From the NCBI GenBank assembly GCA_016932415.1, contig JAFGCX010000011.1, positions 104,115 to 168,114 of the forward strand: DNA of 64,000 nt. Reading direction: 5' to 3'. The first letter of the stretch is position 1. The number at the start of each line of letters is the position of its first letter. A program made the position numbers and the translations under genes. Origin of the DNA: Candidatus Krumholzibacteriota bacterium (GTDB taxonomy: Bacteria > Krumholzibacteriota > Krumholzibacteriia > Krumholzibacteriales > Krumholzibacteriaceae). This document shows, in pieces, positions 1 to 47,054 of this stretch. Under the pieces are notes generated by a model. That model was not told the DNA's origin, did not search any database, and saw only the letters and a program-made list of their open reading frames with translations.

Positions 1-969
1 TTTGAATTTTCCTTCGTCAAGATACTTCCCCGCTGCCGCTGTCATATCCGCGGGCGAAGGATCGACGGCGAGATCGAGGTTGTAACCGTATAGTGTCTTC
101 CCCGGCTGTTCGCGTGAGCAGAAGAGACAGCTGTTCGTGCAGCTTGAAGTTGGATTTATATAGAGCCTGTCGCCGATCGAATACGCCACGCTTGCAGGCA
201 GATCTCGCTCTCCATGCATCAGTCTGCGATAGTTCACCTCCGCGGCCCGTTCGATGTCGGAGACCCCCACGCTCCTGAGCCCGGCGAATTTTTCGGCGAT
301 GATCTTTACGTAGGCCGGTTCGTTCCTTTTTCCCCTGTACGGGACGGGCGTAAGGTAGGGACAATCCGTTTCGAGGACGAATCCAGAGGAAGGGAGCCTC
401 TCGACGATATCGGGAAGCTTCGAATTCTTGTACGTCAGCGGTCCGCCTATTCCCACAATAAACCCGAGTTCAAGTATCTTTGCCAGTTCGTCAGGCCCTC
501 CCGAGAACGCGTGGAATATCCCACCCGCTCGCGAAGCGCCCTCTTCCTCAAGTATCCTTACAAGATCCTCGAAAGCGTCCCTGCAATGGATGACTATCGG
601 TTTCGAAAACCGCAGCGCCAGCCCGATCTGCCTTCTCAACACATCCTGCTGGACATCTCTCGGGGAAAGGTCCCTGTAGTAATCGAGGCCGATCTCCCCC
701 ACGGCGAGGACTTTCTTTTTGAGAAGAAGAGGTTTGATCTTTTCCTCGAGAGAGGGAGACCAGTCGGTCGCGTGATGAGGATGTATGCCCGCGGCAGCGT
801 ATATTCCCGGATATTTTTCCGCCAGCGCGATCGTGGCGTCGATAGAGGAAGGATCATATCCAACGTTGAGGATCTCCCCTATCCCGGCCTTCCCGGCTCT
901 TTCCATCACTTCACCGAAGTCGTCCCTGAACTCGGACATATTGAGATGAGCGTGAGAATCAATCAGCAT
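1..969 (-). CDS. TatD-family metal-dependent hydrolase/DNase fused to a C-terminal radical SAM domain (C-terminus runs off the left window edge)
   Basis: Minus-strand frame is open from the ATG at 969 to position 1, checked codon by codon for 1-240. N-terminus MLIDSHAHL matches the TatD start. Translation continues past the TatD domain (~255 aa) into ...SIGDRLYINPTSSCTNSCLFCSRE..., a CxxxCxxC radical-SAM cluster motif. Absent from the ORF track only because there is no in-window stop. Start lies 8 nt after the metG stop. Confidence 0.8.
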   Translation of the reverse strand, partial: MLIDSHAHLNMSEFRDDFGEVMERAGKAGIGEILNVGYDPSSIDATIALAEKYPGIYAAAGIHPHHATDWSPSLEEKIKPLLLKKKVLAVGEIGLDYYRDLSPRDVQQDVLRRQIGLALRFSKPIVIHCRDAFEDLVRILEEEGASRAGGIFHAFSGGPDELAKILELGFIVGIGGPLTYKNSKLPDIVERLPSSGFVLETDCPYLTPVPYRGKRNEPAYVKIIAEKFAGLRSVGVSDIERAAEVNYRRLMHGERDLPASVAYSIGDRLYINPTSSCTNSCLFCSREQPGKTLYGYNLDLAVDPSPADMTAAAGKYLDEGKFK

Positions 970-976
970 ATCTCTG

Positions 977-2515
977 TCAATCCTTGAAAATATCTTCCGG
1001 ATCTTCCTGTATTCTCGGAAAAAGAGGGGAGGGCTGACTTATCTTTACCGCCGCGCAGCTTTTCGGAGGAAGATCGTCCAGCGAAAGGCCATCCTGACCG
1101 AGCTGCCCTGACAGCTCTTTCATGCGCTCCGGCATAAAGGGGGAAAGGACGACGGCCGAGCTCCTGAGCACGGCAAGCAGTTCCCTGAAAACCGCTTTCA
1201 ACTCCTCCTTTTTTGATTCGTCTTTCGCCAGAACCCATGGGCTTTTTTCCTCTATATACCTGTTCGCTCTCTGTATGACAGTCCAGAAAGCCCCTAGCGC
1301 CCTGGAGAATTCAAGGTTTTCCATATTCTCCCGGTATCCATCGAGAGCGGTGGCAAGATCTTCGTAAAGATCGTTGCGCGAATCGAAAGGCGCCTCGTCG
1401 ATATTCCCGCCAAGATATTTCGAGATCATCGCGAGGGTCCTGCTGGAAAGATTCCCGAGTTCGTTCGCCAGGTCGGCATTATATCTGTTTACCAAAATAT
1501 CGACAGATATATCCCCGTCCTTGTCGAACGGGACTTCCCTCATGAGAAGATACCGGAGAGGATCAGCTCCGAAGACTGCCGCCATCTTTGCCGGATCCAG
1601 AATATTTCCCCGCGATTTGCTCATCTTCTCCCCGGCGAGCGATATGAATCCGTGAGCAAAGACGCTTTTCGGCAGTTCTACTCCCGCGGCCATAAGCATC
1701 GAGGGCCATATTACGCAGTGGAACCTTGTTATATCCTTGCCGATCACATGAAAATCGGCGGGCCAGTACTTTTCGAATGCGCCGCTTTCTTCCCCGCCGT
1801 AATCGAGAGCTGAGATATAGTTGGTCAGAGCGTCGAACCATACATAGACGACATGACCGGGATCGATCGGGAGAGGGATCCCCCACGCTACTCCCGCTCT
1901 TGATATCGAGACGTCATGAAGTCCGCTCTTTATCACGTTAAGCACTTCGTTCGCCCTCGTCTTCGGCCTGATGAAACCTGGATTCTTCTCGATATGATCG
2001 AGAAGCGGTTTCTCGAATTTAGACAGGGCGAAGAAATAGTTCTCCTCGCTGATACTTTTCGGCGCCTGCTTGTGGCTGGGGCATAGCCCGTCGACCAGGT
2101 CTTTCTCGCTGATGAATTCCTCGCACGATTCGCAGTAGAGTCCTTCGTATTTTCCCTTATAGATATATCCATTCTCGTGGATCCTGGTGAACAGGCAGCT
2201 GACTGCCTTTTCGTGCCGCTTCTCCGTCGTATGTATGAAATCGTCGTACGAGATATTCAGTTTTTTCCAGGTCCCGGTGAATTCTTCCGACATGATCCTG
2301 CAATAATCGAGCGGTTCCATATCTCTTTTTCGAGCTTCGCGTTCGACATTTGTGCTGTGCTCGTCGTTGCCCATCACAAAATGCGTCTCGAACCCGCAGA
2401 GCCTTTTGTACCTTGCCATACAATCGGCCCCGATCTTTTCATACGCCGTCCCAAGGTGGGGTTTCTGGTTCACGTAGTCGATCGCAGTCGTGATATAGAA
2501 CCTCTTTTTACTCAT
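977..2515 (-). CDS. metG: Methionyl-tRNA synthetase (short form without C-terminal tRNA-binding domain)
   Basis: Class I aaRS with KMSKS and Zn-knuckle cysteines. Start moved to MSKKRFYITTAIDY (ATG at 2515), preceded by GGGAGAAGG. Track ORF extends to 2533. Confidence 0.9.
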   Translation of the reverse strand: MSKKRFYITTAIDYVNQKPHLGTAYEKIGADCMARYKRLCGFETHFVMGNDEHSTNVEREARKRDMEPLDYCRIMSEEFTGTWKKLNISYDDFIHTTEKRHEKAVSCLFTRIHENGYIYKGKYEGLYCESCEEFISEKDLVDGLCPSHKQAPKSISEENYFFALSKFEKPLLDHIEKNPGFIRPKTRANEVLNVIKSGLHDVSISRAGVAWGIPLPIDPGHVVYVWFDALTNYISALDYGGEESGAFEKYWPADFHVIGKDITRFHCVIWPSMLMAAGVELPKSVFAHGFISLAGEKMSKSRGNILDPAKMAAVFGADPLRYLLMREVPFDKDGDISVDILVNRYNADLANELGNLSSRTLAMISKYLGGNIDEAPFDSRNDLYEDLATALDGYRENMENLEFSRALGAFWTVIQRANRYIEEKSPWVLAKDESKKEELKAVFRELLAVLRSSAVVLSPFMPERMKELSGQLGQDGLSLDDLPPKSCAAVKISQPSPLFPRIQEDPEDIFKD

Positions 2516-27874: not shown

Positions 27875-28321
27875 ATGAAACTCGTAAGATGGATGCCGAC
27901 ATCGAACCTCAACAGGTTTGAAGATGAAGTAAACGATATTTTCAGCAGTTTTTTCCCGGCCAGACTCGATTACGCGCAGGGTGGCGGGAGAAATTGGGTT
28001 CCAAGGGTCAACGTCAGGGAACTCGATGAAAAATTCGAACTCAGCGCCGAGATTCCGGGGATGGAAAAGGACGAACTTTCCATTGAAGTCCAGGAAAACA
28101 CCCTTACTATAAGGGGAGAGAAGAAGACGGAAGAGAAGATCGAGAACGAGAAAATGCATATAAAAGAGATCTTTCGGGGAAAATTCGAAAGGTCTTTCAA
28201 GCTTCCCGAAAACATCAAGGCAGACGATGTAGACGCGGAATACAAAAACGGCATGCTGATCGTCTCGATCCCAAAAACTGAACCGGCAAAACCCAAAGAG
28301 ATCAATGTAAAGATCAAGTAA
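27875..28321 (+). CDS. Small heat-shock protein, Hsp20/alpha-crystallin family
   Basis: Alpha-crystallin domain (WVPRVNVRELDEKFELSAEIPGMEKDELSIEVQENTLTIRGEK...FERSFKLPENIKADDVDAEYKNGMLIVSIPK). Confidence 0.9.
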   Translation: MKLVRWMPTSNLNRFEDEVNDIFSSFFPARLDYAQGGGRNWVPRVNVRELDEKFELSAEIPGMEKDELSIEVQENTLTIRGEKKTEEKIENEKMHIKEIFRGKFERSFKLPENIKADDVDAEYKNGMLIVSIPKTEPAKPKEINVKIK

Positions 28322-33523: not shown

Positions 33524-35433
33524 TTTCCGGTTTTCCCCGTCTCCGGGCCGTTTTCCACTCGTTTTCTGCTTTTTTCCAGAAAGATCATCAGTATCGACAG
33601 GTCGGAATTTCTCACCCCGGTGATCCTCGATGCCTGGCCAAGGGTATGAGGCTTGAATCTCGCGAGCTTTTCCCTCGCCTCGGTGCTCAGCGCTTCCAAT
33701 TCGAACGAAAAGCCTTCCGGTATTACCATCTTGTCCATTTTCAACAACTTGTGCGCTATCCTCTTCTGCCTCGATATATACCCGTCATACTTGACCTCTA
33801 TCGCCAGCATCCCGAGTTCCCTCTCGGAGAGCCCCAGTCCCCTGTCGCCGAGCACTTTTTCTATTTTTTCCGCTCCTATCCCCGGGTGTCTCGCCAGCTG
33901 GATCGCCGGCCTTGCTTCTTTCACCTCAGGGATCTCCACCCCGCCAAAGACCTTGTTTATCTTCGCCGCCGGGATGATCTCCCTTTCCAGCCTTCTTTTT
34001 GCCTTCAGGACCTTTTTCTTCCTCGAGATCATCTCGAGCCACAAGCCTTTGTCGAGAAGCCCGAACTTTACTCCGTACCGGAAAAGCCTTTCGTCGGCAT
34101 TGTCCTGCCTGAGCAGCAGCCTGTGTTCCGCCCTCGAGGTAAACATCCTGTATGGTTCATCGATCTCTTTTGTTATCAGATCATCGACCATGACTCCGGC
34201 GTATGCCATCTGGCGTCCCGGGATAAAAGGCGCCTCACCCCTGAGGGACAGCGAAGCGTTGATTCCAGCCAGGATTCCCTGGGCTGCCGCCTCTTCATAT
34301 CCCGATGTCCCGTTTACCTGCCCGGCAAAGTAGAGGCCTTCGATCCTCTCCGATTCGAGGGACGCGCTGATCTGGTGGGGGGGGAAAAAGTCGTACTCTA
34401 TCGCGTATCCATATCTTACTATTTCCGCCTGCTCAAGCCCTTCTATGGTTCTTATCATCTTTTCCTGGATCTCCGCCGGAAGGCTTGTCGAGAGACCGTT
34501 GATATAGATCTCTTCGGAATCCCTGCCCTCCGGTTCGAGAAATATCTGATGTCTCGGACGATCTGAGAACCTGACGACTTTGTCTTCGATCGAAGGGCAG
34601 TATCTCGGCCCCACTCCCTTTATCTGCCCCGAAAAGAGGGGGGCCCGGCTTATATTGTCCTTGATGATCTCGTGGGTCCTCGCGTTTGTATATGTTATGT
34701 GGCATGAGATCTGGTCGACTTCAAGGGATTTTGTCCTGAAAGAAAAGGGGCTTGGGAATATATCGCCCGGCTGTTCTTCGCATCTTGAAAAATCTATGCT
34801 TTCTCTCCTCAGCCTCGCCGGAGTCCCCGTCTTAAGCCGCCCTCTCTCTATTCCCTTTCTCGCAAGATCGTCGGAGAGGCGGCATGATGGCGGCTCTCCT
34901 TCCCTTCCCCCTGGTATTTTCCTTTCTCCTATATGCATCAACCCGTTAGGAAAAGTCCCGAGCGCCATTATTACCTTCCGCCCCGCTATCCTCTCCCCCG
35001 AAACCGCAACTCCTACGACCTTTCCACTTTCCACGATTATTTCTTCGACCTCCGCCTCTGCCAGATCGAGCTGTTCGGCCAGGACGAGCGCCTCAAGCAT
35101 CCTTTTGTGATATACTTTCTTGTCGGCCTGCGCCCTTGGAGACCAGACCGCCGGCCCTTTGGCCCTGTTCAGCATCCTGAACTGTATCCCCGCCGCGTCG
35201 ATGCAAAGCCCCATCTCCCCTCCGAGGGCGTCGACCTCTCTTACAAGCTGACCTTTTGCCAGGCCGCCGATGGCGGGGTTGCATGGCATCCTAGCTATGT
35301 CGCCCGTATTGATAGTCGCCAGCAGAGTATCGTTTCCCATCCGAGCCGCCGCGAGAGCTGCTTCGCAACCGGCGTGTCCAGCACCAACGACTATAATGTC
35401 ATATCTTTTATCAAGGGTTTTAGTAATAATCAT
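33520..35433 (-). CDS. mnmG: tRNA uridine-5-carboxymethylaminomethyl modification enzyme MnmG (GidA)
   Basis: FAD-binding N-terminus YDIIVVGAGHAGCEAALAAARMG, full-length GidA homology. Confidence 0.95.
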   Translation of the reverse strand: MIITKTLDKRYDIIVVGAGHAGCEAALAAARMGNDTLLATINTGDIARMPCNPAIGGLAKGQLVREVDALGGEMGLCIDAAGIQFRMLNRAKGPAVWSPRAQADKKVYHKRMLEALVLAEQLDLAEAEVEEIIVESGKVVGVAVSGERIAGRKVIMALGTFPNGLMHIGERKIPGGREGEPPSCRLSDDLARKGIERGRLKTGTPARLRRESIDFSRCEEQPGDIFPSPFSFRTKSLEVDQISCHITYTNARTHEIIKDNISRAPLFSGQIKGVGPRYCPSIEDKVVRFSDRPRHQIFLEPEGRDSEEIYINGLSTSLPAEIQEKMIRTIEGLEQAEIVRYGYAIEYDFFPPHQISASLESERIEGLYFAGQVNGTSGYEEAAAQGILAGINASLSLRGEAPFIPGRQMAYAGVMVDDLITKEIDEPYRMFTSRAEHRLLLRQDNADERLFRYGVKFGLLDKGLWLEMISRKKKVLKAKRRLEREIIPAAKINKVFGGVEIPEVKEARPAIQLARHPGIGAEKIEKVLGDRGLGLSERELGMLAIEVKYDGYISRQKRIAHKLLKMDKMVIPEGFSFELEALSTEAREKLARFKPHTLGQASRITGVRNSDLSILMIFLEKSRKRVENGPETGKTGK

Positions 35434-35469
35434 TATTAATATCTGTCTAACAGCTTGTATTACAGGTGG

Positions 35470-39735: not shown

Positions 39736-40094
39736 CTTGATATCAGTCCGGCTCTCTTGAGAGAGCTCACTACATCTTCCGTGAGTTCCTGAAATGATGT
39801 CTCCTCAGGACGAAATGAGGCTATAAATACTATCCAGATATTTTTCTCGTTAATTCGGTCCTTGACTGTTCTGAATATTTCCCTCATCAGCCTTTTCGCC
39901 CTGTTACGCTGATAAGCCTTTCCAACGTTCTTTTTGCTGGCCACGAATCCCGGCAGAAGGCCCCTGTTCTCATCATCCCCCTCACCGTTTCTTCCCAGGT
40001 ACAGTATCGTGATCTTTTGCCCCGCCTCCCTTTTCCCTTCACTGTAGACGAGCCTGAACTGCCTGCTATTCTTTAGTCCTTTCATCGATACCAT
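39726..40094 (-). CDS. rnpA: RNase P protein component RnpA
   Basis: Basic 122-aa protein with an RNR-like motif region (AYQRNRAKRLMRE). Sits 21 nt downstream of rpmH. Confidence 0.85.
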   Translation of the reverse strand: MVSMKGLKNSRQFRLVYSEGKREAGQKITILYLGRNGEGDDENRGLLPGFVASKKNVGKAYQRNRAKRLMREIFRTVKDRINEKNIWIVFIASFRPEETSFQELTEDVVSSLKRAGLISSCG

Positions 40095-40115
40095 CGCCCG
40101 GGCTCATCCCGGAGG

Positions 40116-40250
40116 TCATACGGCCAGCCTCTTTCTTCCTTTTTCTCTTCTTCGCCTGAGCACTTCCCTGCCGTTCTTCGTGCTCATTCTTTTTCTGAAT
40201 CCGTGAGTTCTTTTTCTTCTCTTGTTATGAGGCTGAAATGTGCGTTTCAT
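40116..40250 (-). CDS. rpmH: 50S ribosomal protein L34
   Basis: Not in the ORF track (<60 aa). Reverse-strand translation [44 protein letters not shown] is a near-perfect L34. Confidence 0.9.
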
Positions 40251-40627
40251 TTTCTATCCTTTTCCATTCATTTCCATGCAGATAGAGGCCTTTGAATATA
40301 TATAAACAACTTACAATAGAAGTCCTCATCTTTTTTGTCAAGCATTTTATCTCTATCTTTTTTAACTTGTTTGTTTATCATTCTTTTCAGATCTTATCCC
40401 CGCCGGTAATCTTTCCATTTTTTCGTCTTCTCCGCCCTTAAGGTATCCCGCAAGCTTTATCTCCTTGCATTTCCATCAGTTAGAATTTATTCCACATTTT
40501 ATGTAAATAATTCTTGATATCGATTTTTCCGTATGATACATTTCCGCCTGCGGGATCAGGGGAGGGTTCGTTTTTAAGGGCTTCGCAGCCCGTTTCTTTT
40601 CTTTTTTGCTTCCCCGGTTTTTTTGAT

Positions 40628-40636
40628 TGTGGATAA
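40628..40636 (-). promoter_or_regulatory. DnaA box TGTGGATAA (perfect consensus, reverse orientation)
   Basis: Exact reverse complement of TTATCCACA. Confidence 0.7.
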
Positions 40637-40695
40637 CGTCATGACATCATATTGAAAACCCCGCCGCTAATGTTGTTATTATTAAAGTTATAGAG

Positions 40696-40715
40696 TTTTC
40701 CACATTTGTGGAAAA
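40696..40715. promoter_or_regulatory. Palindromic pair of near-consensus DnaA boxes TTTTCCACA-tt-TGTGGAAAA overlapping the TTG at 40706
   Basis: Two 8/9 matches to the DnaA box arranged as a 20-bp inverted repeat immediately upstream of dnaA. A likely autoregulatory site. Confidence 0.5.
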
Positions 40716-40774
40716 CAAGAAAGATTTTGAAAGCTGCCGGCCTTTCCGACGGACCGGTATCTTCGGTCATTGCT

Positions 40775-42130
40775 ATGAGACTAGAACAAGACCCTGGCAT
40801 CGACATATGGGAAACGATCCTCGACAAGCTTAAAAAGGTCGTAAACGCGCAGAGCTTTCAGACCTGGTTTGCCCCCACCAGGCTGGCCGGATATGAAAGG
40901 GGCGTCCTGCTGGTCGAAGGACCAAATTCGTTTTTCATCGACTGGCTCGCCGAACACCACATCGACAAGATAACCGAGGCCGCCTCGGAAGTCCTTGGCG
41001 AAAAAGTAGTTATAGAGTTTTCGTCTCCCTCTCCGCGCAGGACTGTCCGCGCGGAGAAGCCTGTTGAGCGCTCCGTACTTGTCAGAGAGCCGGTCATCCT
41101 TCCCAACAGCGTTCAACTCAACAGCCGATACACGTTCCAGGAGTTTGTAGTGGGAAACGAAAACCTCCTGGCTCACGCGGCGGCCCTCGCAGTAGCTGAA
41201 AAACCGGCCCAGACCTACAACCCCCTTTTCATCTACGGCGGCCCCGGCCTGGGAAAGACTCATCTTCTGCAGGCTATTGGCCATTTTGTCCTCGAGGAAC
41301 ATCCCGGAATGAGGATCTCGTATGTCTCGACCGAGAGTTTCATGAACGAGCTTATCCGTTCGATCAGAAACGGCGAGACCTTCGAGTTCAAGGAACGCTA
41401 CCGCAATATAGATATTCTCCTGATAGACGACATCCACTTTCTCGCCGGCAAGGAAAGGACGCAGGAAGAGTTTTTCTATACTTTCAACGCTCTCCACAAC
41501 GCCAGCAAACAGATCGTCTGTACGAGCGACCGGCCCCCGAAAGAGATCCCGTCACTTCAGGACAGGCTTACTTCACGTTTCGAGTGGGGTCTTATAACCG
41601 ACATCCAGCCTCCAGACCTCGAGACCAGGGTCGCGATCCTGCGCAAAAAGGTCGAAAAGGAGATAATGCCTATCCCTGAAAGCGTCATCTTTCTTATAGC
41701 GGAGAACGTAAGGGGAAATACGAGGGAGCTGGAGGGGTCGCTCGTCAAGATCCTCGCCTGCGCCAGCCTGACAAACCAGGATATCAATGTCGATATGGCC
41801 GGTGAGGTACTGAAAGTCTTTATCTCGGGAGCTGAGAAGAAAAAGATCTCTATAAAGTCGATACAGCGTGCTGTCGCGGCGGAATTCGACATCCCCGTAC
41901 ACACGCTTTCCGCCAAGACGAGGATGAGCCGCGTCGTTGCGGCGCGCCAGGTCGCCATTTTTCTTTCCCGCGAACTTACCTCTCTTTCGCTGGTGCAGAT
42001 AGGAAAAGGTTTCGGGGGCAGGGACCACAGCACGGTCCTGCATTCGATCAAAAAGATAGAAACATCCATTTCCGTCGACCCGTCGCTTGAAAGGCAGATA
42101 TCCGCTCTCAGAAAAGATCTTGAGACCTGA
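40775..42130 (+). CDS. dnaA: Chromosomal replication initiator DnaA
   Basis: Domain I (IWETILDKL...FQTWF), AAA+ Walker A GGPGLGKTHLL, sensor motifs, C-terminal HTH (KTRMSRVVAARQVAIFLSREL). ATG at 40775 preferred. The track's TTG start at 40706 overlaps the DnaA-box palindrome. Confidence 0.95.
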   Translation: MRLEQDPGIDIWETILDKLKKVVNAQSFQTWFAPTRLAGYERGVLLVEGPNSFFIDWLAEHHIDKITEAASEVLGEKVVIEFSSPSPRRTVRAEKPVERSVLVREPVILPNSVQLNSRYTFQEFVVGNENLLAHAAALAVAEKPAQTYNPLFIYGGPGLGKTHLLQAIGHFVLEEHPGMRISYVSTESFMNELIRSIRNGETFEFKERYRNIDILLIDDIHFLAGKERTQEEFFYTFNALHNASKQIVCTSDRPPKEIPSLQDRLTSRFEWGLITDIQPPDLETRVAILRKKVEKEIMPIPESVIFLIAENVRGNTRELEGSLVKILACASLTNQDINVDMAGEVLKVFISGAEKKKISIKSIQRAVAAEFDIPVHTLSAKTRMSRVVAARQVAIFLSRELTSLSLVQIGKGFGGRDHSTVLHSIKKIETSISVDPSLERQISALRKDLET

Positions 42131-42145
42131 TCTCTTACCGCCTCG

Positions 42146-42154
42146 TTATCCACA
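42146..42154 (+). promoter_or_regulatory. DnaA box TTATCCACA (perfect)
   Basis: Exact consensus 16 nt after the dnaA stop. Confidence 0.7.
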
Positions 42155-42294
42155 TCCTCGCTGTTTATAAAATGTTGATTCCTGTTGGTATCTTTTCCCA
42201 TGGGCATAATTGTTGAGATTTTCCACTTGTTCACACAAATGCCAACACCGCTTCGCCTCCTGCCGCTCGAGCCTGTTCTTGAACACTTGGGTGA

Positions 42295-42311
42295 TTATCC
42301 ACATATCCACA
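42295..42311 (+). promoter_or_regulatory. Tandem DnaA boxes TTATCCACA + TATCCACA
   Basis: One exact box and an adjacent 8/9 box in direct orientation. Confidence 0.7.
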
Positions 42312-42480
42312 CGCTCTACTCCTACTACTGATTCTATTAATTACACAATGTCTGTATAATACCTCCTGTTTATATTTTCCCTTTATTTTGTCTTGTACGC
42401 GTGTATAAATTCCCTTATGATTCACTTTCCTGAAGAATGAAAAATTAATACGATTCAGAAAGCCTGGAGGAGGTAGCGGA

Positions 42481-43590
42481 GTGAAGGTAGTTATCCCGCT
42501 TGAAGAACTGAGCAAGAAAATGAACGCCATATCAGGCGTTGTCCCCGCGAAAACAACGATGCCGATACTCTCCATGACCCTTATCAAGGCCGACACTTCG
42601 GGGATCTCCTTTTCAGCCACAGACCTCGATATCTCAGTGACTTCAAAGGTGAACGGGAAGGTCGATGAAGAAGGATTGATTTCCGTACCGGCAAAAAAAA
42701 TAGCCGAGATCGTGAAATCGCTCTCCCAGGGAGAGGTAACGCTTTCGTCGAACGAAGAGAACAAACTCACTATCAAATGCGGGAAAAGCAGGTTTTCGGT
42801 AAATGGAAGAAGCGCGGAGGATTTTCCAAAACTACCCAAACAGGAAAGCAAGGCTGAATTCTCGATCGATTCCGCGCTTCTCGGAAAACTCGTCCAGAAG
42901 ACACTCTACGCGGTTTCGACCGACCTTACCCGGCCCGCGCTATGCGGCGTGAAGTGGGAAATCGACAAGGGTGGAGTCCTGATGGTTTCTACAGACGGAC
43001 ACAGGCTCGCGAAGGCCGAAGTGAAACTGGCGCTCGGAGAGATAAAGAAATCGGAAGTGATCGTGCCTCCAAAAGCCCTTTCGACATTCAAGGCATACGC
43101 CCAGAAAGACGAGATGATCAGGGTCAACATCGGAGATAACAGCATATCGTTCGAGATGGACGAGGTGTCGATTTATTCGCGCCTTCTCGAAGGACCCTTC
43201 CCGAATTATCAGAAAGTGATCCCGGCAAACAACACAAGAGAGATGCTTGTATCGAAGGAAGCTTTGTCGATGGCAACGAAACGCGTATCGATTCTTTCCG
43301 ACGCGCTGACGCATCAGGTGATCTTTTCTCTCGGTAAAGACAATCTGAGGCTCCATGTGACGACGCAGGATCTTGGAGAAGCGACAGAGGATATCGACGC
43401 GACATACTCTGATGAAGAGATGGAGATAGGTTACAACGCCGCGTATATTCAGGATATTCTCAGAACTTTCGATACTGACGATATCGCATTCAATCTCGAC
43501 AGACCGGACAATGCCGGAATAATAAAACCGGTCGAACAAAGCGGGGAAATCAAACAGCTCTGTATCGTCATGCCTCTGAGAATTCTGTGA
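42481..43590 (+). CDS. dnaN: DNA polymerase III beta sliding clamp DnaN
   Basis: GTG start with GGAGGAGG SD 7 nt upstream, three-domain clamp homology, C-terminus MPLRI. Confidence 0.9.
   Translation: MKVVIPLEELSKKMNAISGVVPAKTTMPILSMTLIKADTSGISFSATDLDISVTSKVNGKVDEEGLISVPAKKIAEIVKSLSQGEVTLSSNEENKLTIKCGKSRFSVNGRSAEDFPKLPKQESKAEFSIDSALLGKLVQKTLYAVSTDLTRPALCGVKWEIDKGGVLMVSTDGHRLAKAEVKLALGEIKKSEVIVPPKALSTFKAYAQKDEMIRVNIGDNSISFEMDEVSIYSRLLEGPFPNYQKVIPANNTREMLVSKEALSMATKRVSILSDALTHQVIFSLGKDNLRLHVTTQDLGEATEDIDATYSDEEMEIGYNAAYIQDILRTFDTDDIAFNLDRPDNAGIIKPVEQSGEIKQLCIVMPLRIL

Positions 43591-44802: not shown

Positions 44803-47054
<2,252 letters not shown>

Follow-up and report, generated by a model that had tools for sequence, protein, structure and literature searches.

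A probable dnaA-linked chromosomal replication origin with a predicted unwinding module between dnaA and dnaN in an uncultured Krumholzibacteriota bacterium

Judged by its sequence, the region around dnaA in an uncultured Candidatus Krumholzibacteriota bacterium is the chromosomal replication origin, an ordinary and well-defined dnaA-linked oriC. Its layout resembles that of Bacillus subtilis, and by this analogy the opening site is predicted to lie between dnaA and dnaN. We consider it highly probable that the dnaA-dnaN spacer forms the working origin core, that the rpmH-dnaA spacer is mainly a promoter, and that dnaA is translated from the ATG at 40775. Coordinates refer to the window, the 64-kb stretch of DNA that was analysed, and the features of the locus are collected in Table 1.

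The gene order is the ancestral one (parB-parA-...-rsmG-mnmG-mnmE-jag-yidC-yidD-rnpA-rpmH, then dnaA-dnaN-recF-dciA-gyrB-gyrA), and the conserved rpmH-dnaA-dnaN-recF-gyrB context that marks an origin neighbourhood is present at the locus. Spacers of 524 bp (rpmH-dnaA) and 350 bp (dnaA-dnaN) flank dnaA, and the position of dciA is identical in a relative with a complete 4.1-Mb genome (L031). A switch in gene strand near 40.3 kb, pointed out in the preliminary description, is borne out: long open reading frames from about 1 kb to 40.25 kb lie on the minus strand and those to the right mostly on the plus strand, the plus-strand exceptions on the left being 214-987 (+) and hsp20 at 27875-28321 (+). 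Across the locus, GC skew rises from about -0.18 to around +0.15, a sign change in the sense that an origin should show. The cumulative G-C minimum lies at 42635, that of purines at 42431; these values cover 64 kb only and are confounded by gene-strand bias, so that the replicon may have a deeper minimum at another place. In L031, where 21 kb were covered, the local skew minimum is likewise within the dnaA-dnaN spacer. An Rfam scan of positions 40000-42700 returned a single match, AsdA within the dnaA coding sequence, which is below threshold (30.7 bits; gathering score 52) and is treated as conservation of that coding sequence. A scan of metagenome contigs returned relatives only, at identities of 55% or less.

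Table 1 Features of the dnaA locus (positions in the window).
Feature	Position	Strand	Description
Promoter-like site for rpmH, TTGACA-17-TATTGT	40313..40341	-	10/12 matches
Putative dnaA promoter, TTGATA-17-TACATT, TG before second hexamer	40514..40542	+	Consensus match
Conserved motif CCGCCTGCGGGATCAGGGGAGGG	40544..40566	+	Just 3' of putative dnaA promoter
Terminator-like hairpin GGGCTTCGCAGCCC, then T-run	40578..40600	+	Closest relatives only
Perfect DnaA box (TGTGGATAA on + strand)	40628..40636	-	Exact match
Weak, semi-conserved box-like site TGTTGTTAT	40671..40679	-	Offset +43; mean 2.8 mismatches to TTDTCMACA, 10 loci
Head-to-head DnaA box pair TTTTCCACA tt TGTGGAAAA	40696..40715	.	Non-coding; candidate DnaA operator
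dnaA coding sequence	40775..42130	+	451 aa, ATG start; Pfam DnaA_N, Bac_DnaA, Bac_DnaA_C
Distal perfect DnaA box	42146..42154	+	170 nt before first trio
Degenerate box cluster	42162-70 (-), 42173-81 (-), 42211-19 (-), 42219-27 (+), 42227-35 (+)		Spans 42162..42235
Tandem DnaA boxes TTATCCACA + (A)TATCCACA	42295..42311	+	8-nt step; predicted unwinding platform
G+C-rich 4-nt spacer CGCT	42312..42315	.	Sequence
Nine DnaA-trios	42316..42342	-	Top strand CTA CTC CTA CTA CTG ATT CTA TTA ATT
AT-rich low-stability DNA, predicted unwinding element	42322..42422	.	z = 3.9; 72-73% A+T
Degenerate right-hand box TGTTTATAT	42367..42375	-	3 mismatches
Promoter-like site for dnaN, TTGTAC-17-TATGAT	42393..42421	+	Read from sequence; not in consensus scan
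dnaN	42481..43590	+	GTG start; Shine-Dalgarno GGAGGAGG at 42466-42473
dciA, helicase-loading factor of non-DnaC/DnaI type	44803..45144	+	Pfam PF05258, E = 4e-21

The decisive element, which the preliminary description had missed, spans 42295-42422 and consists of tandem DnaA boxes, a short spacer, DnaA-trios and AT-rich DNA; it is this combination that puts the predicted opening site between dnaA and dnaN. The second tandem box (ATATCCACA, 42303-42311), reported earlier as a near-perfect neighbour, is present and has one base in common with the perfect box at 42295-42303. The trios are 3'-GAT-5'-type repeats on the bottom strand; read on the top strand, four of the nine are exact CTA and two more are CTN. 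This box-trio module was the top-scoring candidate in the 64 kb, with the first trio 12 nt from the perfect box and 4 nt from the 8/9 box. The published search for basal unwinding systems asks for a run of three or more 3'-NAN-5' triplets (consensus 3'-GAT-5') whose first member is no more than 16 bp from a box with at most two mismatches (PMC8287927). Both the box proximity and the triplet run are found at 42295-42342, the trio criterion being a permissive one that also gave a 9-triplet run beside a weak box in one of 30 window shuffles. The 12-nt spacer from the better box falls within the published peak of 10-13 nt (PMC8287927). CTACTA is 24-fold enriched in the spacers; over 10 loci, it, TCCACA and TCAACA belong to the 6-mers with the strongest enrichment there.

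All 13 related lineages examined, with DnaA identities of 60-84%, have the module in this architecture, as does Sporolactobacillus; automated anchoring succeeded for 8 of 10 loci and the remainder were read by eye. Box positions are kept relative to the first trio, at -170, -154/-144, -104, -89, -21, -13 and +51. The tandem boxes at -21 and -13 are found in 10 loci and additionally in L034-L036, and all 10 loci have a plus-oriented box near -170 (-167 to -171). Where the window has its degenerate cluster, at about -154/-144, -104 and -89, the boxes of relatives are better (TGTTGATAA and similar). The 4-nt spacer is equal in length in relatives (CCCC, GGCC, GGGC, CCCT and others). The right-hand site is weak in the window because of its three mismatches; relatives carry TGTTGATAT, CGTGGATAA or GTTGATAAC at +51/+52. 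In the promoter-like site for dnaN, TCTTGTA and TTATG are invariant in a five-way alignment.

We infer the opening mechanism of the dnaA-dnaN spacer from that of B. subtilis. DnaA would bind the tandem boxes, aided by the distal perfect box at 42146 and several degenerate boxes, and from this platform would oligomerise onto the bottom strand of the nine trios. The adjacent AT-rich DNA would then open, and the helicase would be loaded there with DciA.

The basal unwinding system of B. subtilis incC comprises DnaA-boxes #6/#7, DnaA-trios and AT-rich DNA (PMC6669920, PMC8287927). Like it, the Krumholzibacteriota module lies between dnaA and dnaN and has some seven box positions. In each, the upstream one of two tandem boxes is the better match, a G+C-rich spacer of 4 nt separates the pair from triplets of the CTA type (3'-GAT-5' on the bottom strand), AT-rich DNA comes next, and a distal box is located well over 44 bp upstream. 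The order and orientation are also those of Sporolactobacillus (TTACTAACATATTCACAggccCTACTATTATGATTACTA), a member of the Bacillales. Unlike in B. subtilis, nine triplets stand in register, TCAACA-core boxes are also used in the lineage, and relatives carry a conserved reverse box about 51 nt beyond the first trio. The host also differs, being an uncultured Krumholzibacteriota bacterium with DciA encoded next to the origin. B. subtilis has helicase loaders of the DnaD/DnaB/DnaI type.

The three perfect boxes (TTATCCACA) listed in the preliminary description are found where it had placed them, at 40628-40636 (-), 42146-42154 (+) and 42295-42303 (+). They are the only ones in the 64 kb, where 0.29 are expected, and all lie within the two spacers flanking dnaA; three were reached in none of 100 dinucleotide shuffles. 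Weaker boxes with at most two mismatches had been proposed as well, and these number six in the rpmH-dnaA spacer and nine in the dnaA-dnaN spacer, compared with 2.9 per kb in the window. The core TC[C/A]ACA has four and five matches in the two spacers, respectively, whereas its density in the rest of the window is 0.73 per kb (Poisson P = 6.5e-4 and 7e-6), and the densest 400-bp cluster of this core in the window is in the dnaA-dnaN spacer. Boxes thus occur on both sides of dnaA, as had been claimed, the upstream cluster being small, with three conserved boxes. AT-rich low-stability tracts are likewise present in both spacers: the least stable 100-mer of the window is 40297-40397, in the upstream spacer and not beside the trios, and 42322-42422 ranks third.

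The 20-bp palindrome TTTTCCACAttTGTGGAAAA noted previously is confirmed as two 8/9 boxes, 40696-40704 (+) and 40707-40715 (-), and contains the TTG at 40706; the ATG at 40775 is in the same frame, 69 nt downstream. Translation from this TTG, with a coding palindrome whose resemblance to DnaA boxes is incidental, is extremely improbable. The TTG does open the longest open reading frame, and gene callers took equivalent upstream starts in several relatives (e.g. P0004, P0005, P0007, P0102). However, the 23 extra residues are unconserved, most homologues start at or after the ATG column, and in the long form the DnaA_N domain does not begin until residue 34. The palindrome-start distances (79, 79, 81, 84, 80, 121, 90, 52, 137 and 125 nt) differ by non-multiples of three. 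The preliminary description favoured the ATG, which is correct, but called the TTG the annotated start; the TTG is the start of the longest frame, and the identical public protein has 451 aa, which corresponds to the ATG. The predicted N-terminus is MRLEQDPGIDIW..., and the palindrome is non-coding.

In the rpmH-dnaA spacer, where promoter assignments are consensus matches, as throughout the locus, both hexamers of the rpmH promoter-like site are invariant in the five-way alignment. The putative dnaA promoter retains its first hexamer and spacing in relatives, has a column identity of 0.82 against 0.68 for the whole spacer, and would give a leader of about 225 nt. In the motif that follows it, the core CGCGGGAT(G)AGGGG is found in 13 of 13 lineages; the motif could be a GC-rich discriminator, an initial transcribed region or a protein-binding site, and no conserved RNA structure was detected at it across 10 sequences. 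The terminator-like hairpin shows compensatory changes among five sequences and is not kept in more distant relatives. At the position of the upstream box, every one of the 13 lineages has TGTGGAWAA, and its distance to the palindrome is always exactly 68 bp. The head-to-head pair with its 2-nt gap is equally constant (13 of 13), its arms varying only within known box variants, and in one relative (L028) the palindrome consists of two perfect boxes, TTATCCACAatTGTGGATAA.

Several further candidates in this spacer were rejected. A structured leader RNA or attenuator, for which five close relatives gave a three-helix consensus with three compensatory pairs, collapsed to three pairs with 10 sequences, and the fold of a 233-nt leader was no better than shuffles (z = -1.3). 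An upstream open reading frame from the ATG of GGGATGAGGGG is not conserved, the ATG being absent in the window and in L027 and L001, and the lengths and peptides of the frames differ. The stretch from the upstream box to the palindrome might have been a phased array of low-affinity boxes, but only offsets 0, 43 (weak), 68 and 79 are conserved. An exact 15-nt repeat (40686-40700 and 41008-41022) is probably due to chance, since its coding-region copy is absent from relatives.

The placement of a box 68 bp before the palindrome and 3' of a conserved promoter-like site fits the autoregulation of dnaA that the preliminary description proposed. The box at 40628-40636 and the head-to-head pair, at fixed spacing 3' of that site, are most likely sites through which DnaA represses transcription of its own gene, and the upstream boxes may also contact the downstream half by looping. 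DnaA is known to control its own gene by way of boxes at the dnaA promoter in several phyla, with E. coli, B. subtilis, Streptomyces and mycobacteria as examples (PMC8203912). Consensus or near-consensus boxes in the dnaA promoter and leader region are common to those systems and this one. In contrast to them, the boxes here are found some 80-165 nt past the predicted promoter (about +80 to +165), not between or over the hexamers, a placement that is unusual for simple promoter occlusion; a head-to-head pair separated by 2 nt and a fixed spacing characterise this lineage.

The label "bipartite", which the preliminary description gave to the origin, is unproven, and a true second half is possible. 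We see an even chance that the origin is a single part in the dnaA-dnaN spacer and that the upstream boxes only autoregulate dnaA transcription. The complete unwinding module and most of the conserved box positions are downstream, a conserved promoter-like site precedes the upstream boxes, and autoregulation of this kind has precedent in several phyla (PMC8203912). The 68-bp spacing and the fixed promoter-box distance, kept at 60-84% DnaA identity, are nevertheless stricter than simple repression needs, and the upstream half is essential in both experimentally studied dnaA-flanking origins (PMC6669920, PMC3479198). A truly bipartite origin, with the 40628-40715 module and the downstream cluster both needed in vivo and dnaA looped out by DnaA, is in our estimate rather unlikely. 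Box clusters do stand on both flanks of dnaA, and the spacing is invariant and the promoter-motif distance nearly constant while the intervening sequence diverges, which suggests a fixed nucleoprotein geometry. B. subtilis (incAB and incC) and H. pylori (oriC1 and oriC2) likewise have flanking clusters and need both halves, of which only the downstream one unwinds (PMC6669920, PMC3479198). As in those origins, the upstream cluster here coincides with the dnaA promoter region. The predicted unwinding element may likewise be confined to the downstream half, where the box-trio module is, but low-stability DNA occurs in both spacers. Unlike in those origins, the upstream part is three conserved boxes in a rigid arrangement of box, 68 bp and head-to-head pair. 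Against this second half, the upstream spacer has just these three boxes and one weak site, compared with seven or so conserved positions downstream. Reading of the sequence found no trios beside the upstream boxes, the box-trio module occurring only downstream. All of the upstream boxes also fall within the leader predicted for dnaA, which means that control of transcription would by itself account for them. We regard it as doubtful that promoter, CGCGGGATGAGGGG motif, box, 68 bp and head-to-head pair form a dedicated second orisome half that positions DnaA for looping.

DnaA boxes near dnaA also occur in organisms whose origin lies elsewhere. In E. coli, for instance, oriC is separated from dnaA (mentioned in PMC8287927). 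It is accordingly conceivable that the boxes here serve transcriptional control of dnaA and dnaN only and that replication begins at a distant site, the window covering 64 kb of the replicon. We judge this very improbable, as a strong change of skew sign and the gene-strand switch fall exactly at the locus and are repeated in a relative, the full box-trio-AT-rich module is position-conserved in 13 lineages, and the neighbourhood is the ancestral origin context.

The locus leaves the current understanding of origins unchanged and gives a base-resolution origin position for an uncultured phylum, which is useful for genome orientation, coverage-based growth rates (peak-to-trough ratio) and completeness checks of assemblies. 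It also exposes a recurrent annotation error, in which the dnaA start is called inside a DnaA-box palindrome. The predicted box-trio module adds an independent case, conserved in position, from a DciA-encoding lineage that belongs to none of the phyla tested to date. If the upstream elements were indeed a second orisome half, they would couple dnaA transcription to origin firing and would make this a phylum-wide bipartite origin in a DciA-using, non-Firmicute lineage.

The locus exhibits the sequence features of a textbook dnaA-linked origin; its host belongs to an uncultured phylum. GC skew in the window lies between about -0.1 and -0.2 left of the locus and between about +0.1 and +0.2 on its right side; origins show such a switch from minus to plus, termini the opposite. 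Within the 64 kb, the cumulative G-C curve reaches its minimum at 42635 and the purine curve at 42431. The local skew minimum (21 kb) of L031, a relative with a complete 4.1-Mb genome, also falls within the dnaA-dnaN spacer. The perfect DnaA box TTATCCACA occurs three times in the window against 0.29 expected, a count of at least three being reached in 0/100 dinucleotide shuffles. Boxes with at most two mismatches number six in the 524-bp upstream spacer (rpmH-dnaA) and nine in the 350-bp downstream spacer (dnaA-dnaN), compared with 2.9 per kb over the window. Re-reading of the sequence confirmed all coordinates of boxes, palindrome and start codons in the preliminary description, and its assignment of a replication origin is borne out by the boxes, the skew change, the gene context and a conserved unwinding module.

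Features of the origin region and their positions in the window
Feature	Position	Strand	Remarks
parB, parA, beta-helix protein, rsmG, mnmG, mnmE, jag, yidC, yidD, rnpA, rpmH		-	Pfam
dnaA, dnaN, recF, dciA, gyrB, gyrA		+	Pfam
hsp20	27875-28321	+	left-arm exception to minus-strand orientation
least stable 50-mer of whole window	35392-35442		mnmG/mnmE junction; without DnaA boxes
promoter-like site for rpmH	40313-40341	-	
promoter-like site TTGATA-17-TACATT	40514-40542	+	
motif C-CGCGGGAT(G)AGGGG	40544-40566		directly 3' of plus-strand promoter-like site; kept in all lineages examined
perfect box TTATCCACA	40628-40636	-	sequence search of window
12-mer TGACATCATATT	40642-40653		just past reverse box; invariant, five closest relatives only
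one-mismatch box TTTTCCACA	40696-40704	+	palindrome arm
one-mismatch box TTTTCCACA	40707-40715	-	palindrome arm
inverted repeat GAAAG-N8-CTTTC	40729-40746		leader; arms invariant, centre variable; five closest relatives only
perfect box TTATCCACA	42146-42154	+	sequence search of window
perfect box TTATCCACA	42295-42303	+	sequence search of window
one-mismatch box ATATCCACA	42303-42311		shares one base with preceding box
Shine-Dalgarno GGAGGAGG of dnaN	42466-42473		strong

The unwinding module in the dnaA-dnaN spacer is unusually clean in its sequence. The tandem boxes (42295-42311) are directly followed by CGCT and nine triplets with a middle T (CTA CTC CTA CTA CTG ATT CTA TTA ATT; 42316-42342), the bottom strand of which carries 3'-GAT-5'-type repeats, i.e. 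the DnaA-trio motif. The preliminary description had recognized the origin and the start codon correctly and overlooked these trios. The DNA 3' of the trios is A+T-rich (72-73%), and only two 100-mers of the window are less stable than 42322-42422. We re-implemented a published search (box with at most two mismatches, spacer of at most 16 nt, at least three NAN triplets; PMC8287927), which returned the 42295-42342 module as the best candidate on either strand of the window. Its 12-nt spacer between the better box and the first trio falls inside the 10-13 nt peak of reported box-trio spacer lengths (PMC8287927). Such long triplet runs are rare in shuffled windows; nine were reached in 1/30, beside a weak box.

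The module is conserved across the 12 related lineages compared (DnaA identity 60-84%). All 12 dnaA-dnaN spacers contain a pair of box-like 9-mers offset by 8 nt, a G+C-rich spacer of 4 nt (longer in one), CTA-type triplets and AT-rich DNA, and a Sporolactobacillus (Bacillales) locus shows the elements in identical order and orientation. With the first trio as reference, recurrent boxes lie near -170 (+), -154/-144 (-), -104 (-), -89 (+), -21 (+), -13 (+) and +51 (-). These are roughly seven positions, as many as reported for B. subtilis incC (PMC6669920). In the spacers of ten loci, the top enriched 6-mers include CTACTA (24-fold), TCCACA (20-fold) and TCAACA (14-fold); the latter two indicate that the box cores CCACA and CAACA are both used in the lineage.

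Origins of B. subtilis and H. pylori require their upstream half (PMC6669920, PMC3479198). Here, the upstream spacer, with no trios adjoining its boxes, looks like a promoter plus a putative DnaA operator; it may also serve as such a half, which would make the origin bipartite as the preliminary description holds. Five-way alignment and ten-way inspection reveal the order rpmH promoter-like site, plus-strand promoter-like site, CGCGGGAT motif, reverse box and palindrome TTTTCCACAttTGTGGAAAA, the last formed by the two TTTTCCACA sites. A position-wise scan places the conserved boxes at offsets 0 (-), 68 (+) and 79 (-) and nowhere else, apart from a weak site at 43. The reverse box lies exactly 68 bp from the palindrome start in 13/13 lineages (DnaA identity 60-84%), although the intervening sequence diverges, and a nearly constant 70-81 nt separate it from the promoter motif. 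The palindrome arms vary solely among the known box variants TTATCCACA, TTTTCCACA and TTGTCCACA. In one relative both are perfect boxes, which argues for a DnaA site rather than an unrelated operator. The CGCGGGAT motif corresponds to no ORF and no RNA structure conserved in the lineages compared; it could be a discriminator/initial transcribed region or could bind some factor. An exact 15-nt direct repeat, AGTTATAGAGTTTTC, abuts the palindrome (40686-40700) and recurs within dnaA (41008-41022); the internal copy is not conserved in relatives, and the repeat is probably due to chance.

A conserved leader RNA structure was suggested by five sequences and lost with ten, and the leader folds no better than shuffles. 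A conserved upstream ORF is excluded, since neither the window nor the two relatives closest to it have the ATG. The sole Rfam match in 40000-42700, sub-threshold AsdA (antisense RNA of dnaA mRNA; 41234-41285 (-), 30.7 bits vs a gathering score of 52), overlies the dnaA Walker A region and most likely reflects coding-sequence conservation. A terminator-like hairpin with T-run (40578-40617) inside the predicted leader may be an attenuator; GGGGAGG...CTTCCCC pairing around it is confined to the five closest relatives.

The TTG at 40706 lies within the palindrome, in frame with the ATG at 40775. Across 60 aligned homologues, conservation starts at the ATG column, where the closest relatives begin (MRAEH..., MSAEK...); longer predicted homologues have unrelated extensions and an internal M there. 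Palindrome-to-start distances in ten lineages (79, 79, 81, 84, 80, 121, 90, 52, 137 and 125 nt) do not preserve a reading frame. DnaA_N begins at residue 34 of the long (TTG) form, and a DnaA identical over 451 aa is annotated in a metagenome-assembled Candidatus Krumholzibacteriota genome. With homologue conservation, frame, domain position and public protein in agreement, the previously proposed ATG start is well supported. Gene callers repeatedly begin dnaA at TTG or GTG inside the palindrome (window 40696-40715; related loci L001 2920-2939 and L036 1489-1508), with false N-terminal extensions of 23-40 residues in DnaA proteins predicted in relatives (P0004, 474 aa; P0005, 475 aa; P0007, 477 aa; P0102, 486 aa). 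The ATG lacks a Shine-Dalgarno sequence (40750-40774), here and in close relatives.

By analogy with B. subtilis (PMC6669920, PMC8287927), DnaA on the tandem boxes, assisted by the distal boxes, would nucleate an oligomer on the bottom-strand trios, which would stretch and open the AT-rich DNA at about 42322-42422; DciA would then take part in helicase loading. The upstream boxes most likely mediate dnaA autoregulation, as first proposed and with precedents elsewhere (PMC8203912), and may have a looping role. We infer these opening steps, DciA involvement, autoregulation and looping; anatomy, statistics and conservation of the sequence are direct observations. The dciA gene (44803-45144) lies between recF and gyrB, with an equivalent place in L031. 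This position points to a DciA route of helicase loading in the lineage, not DnaC/DnaI. The origin at dnaA is a known type of system, found here in an uncultured phylum.
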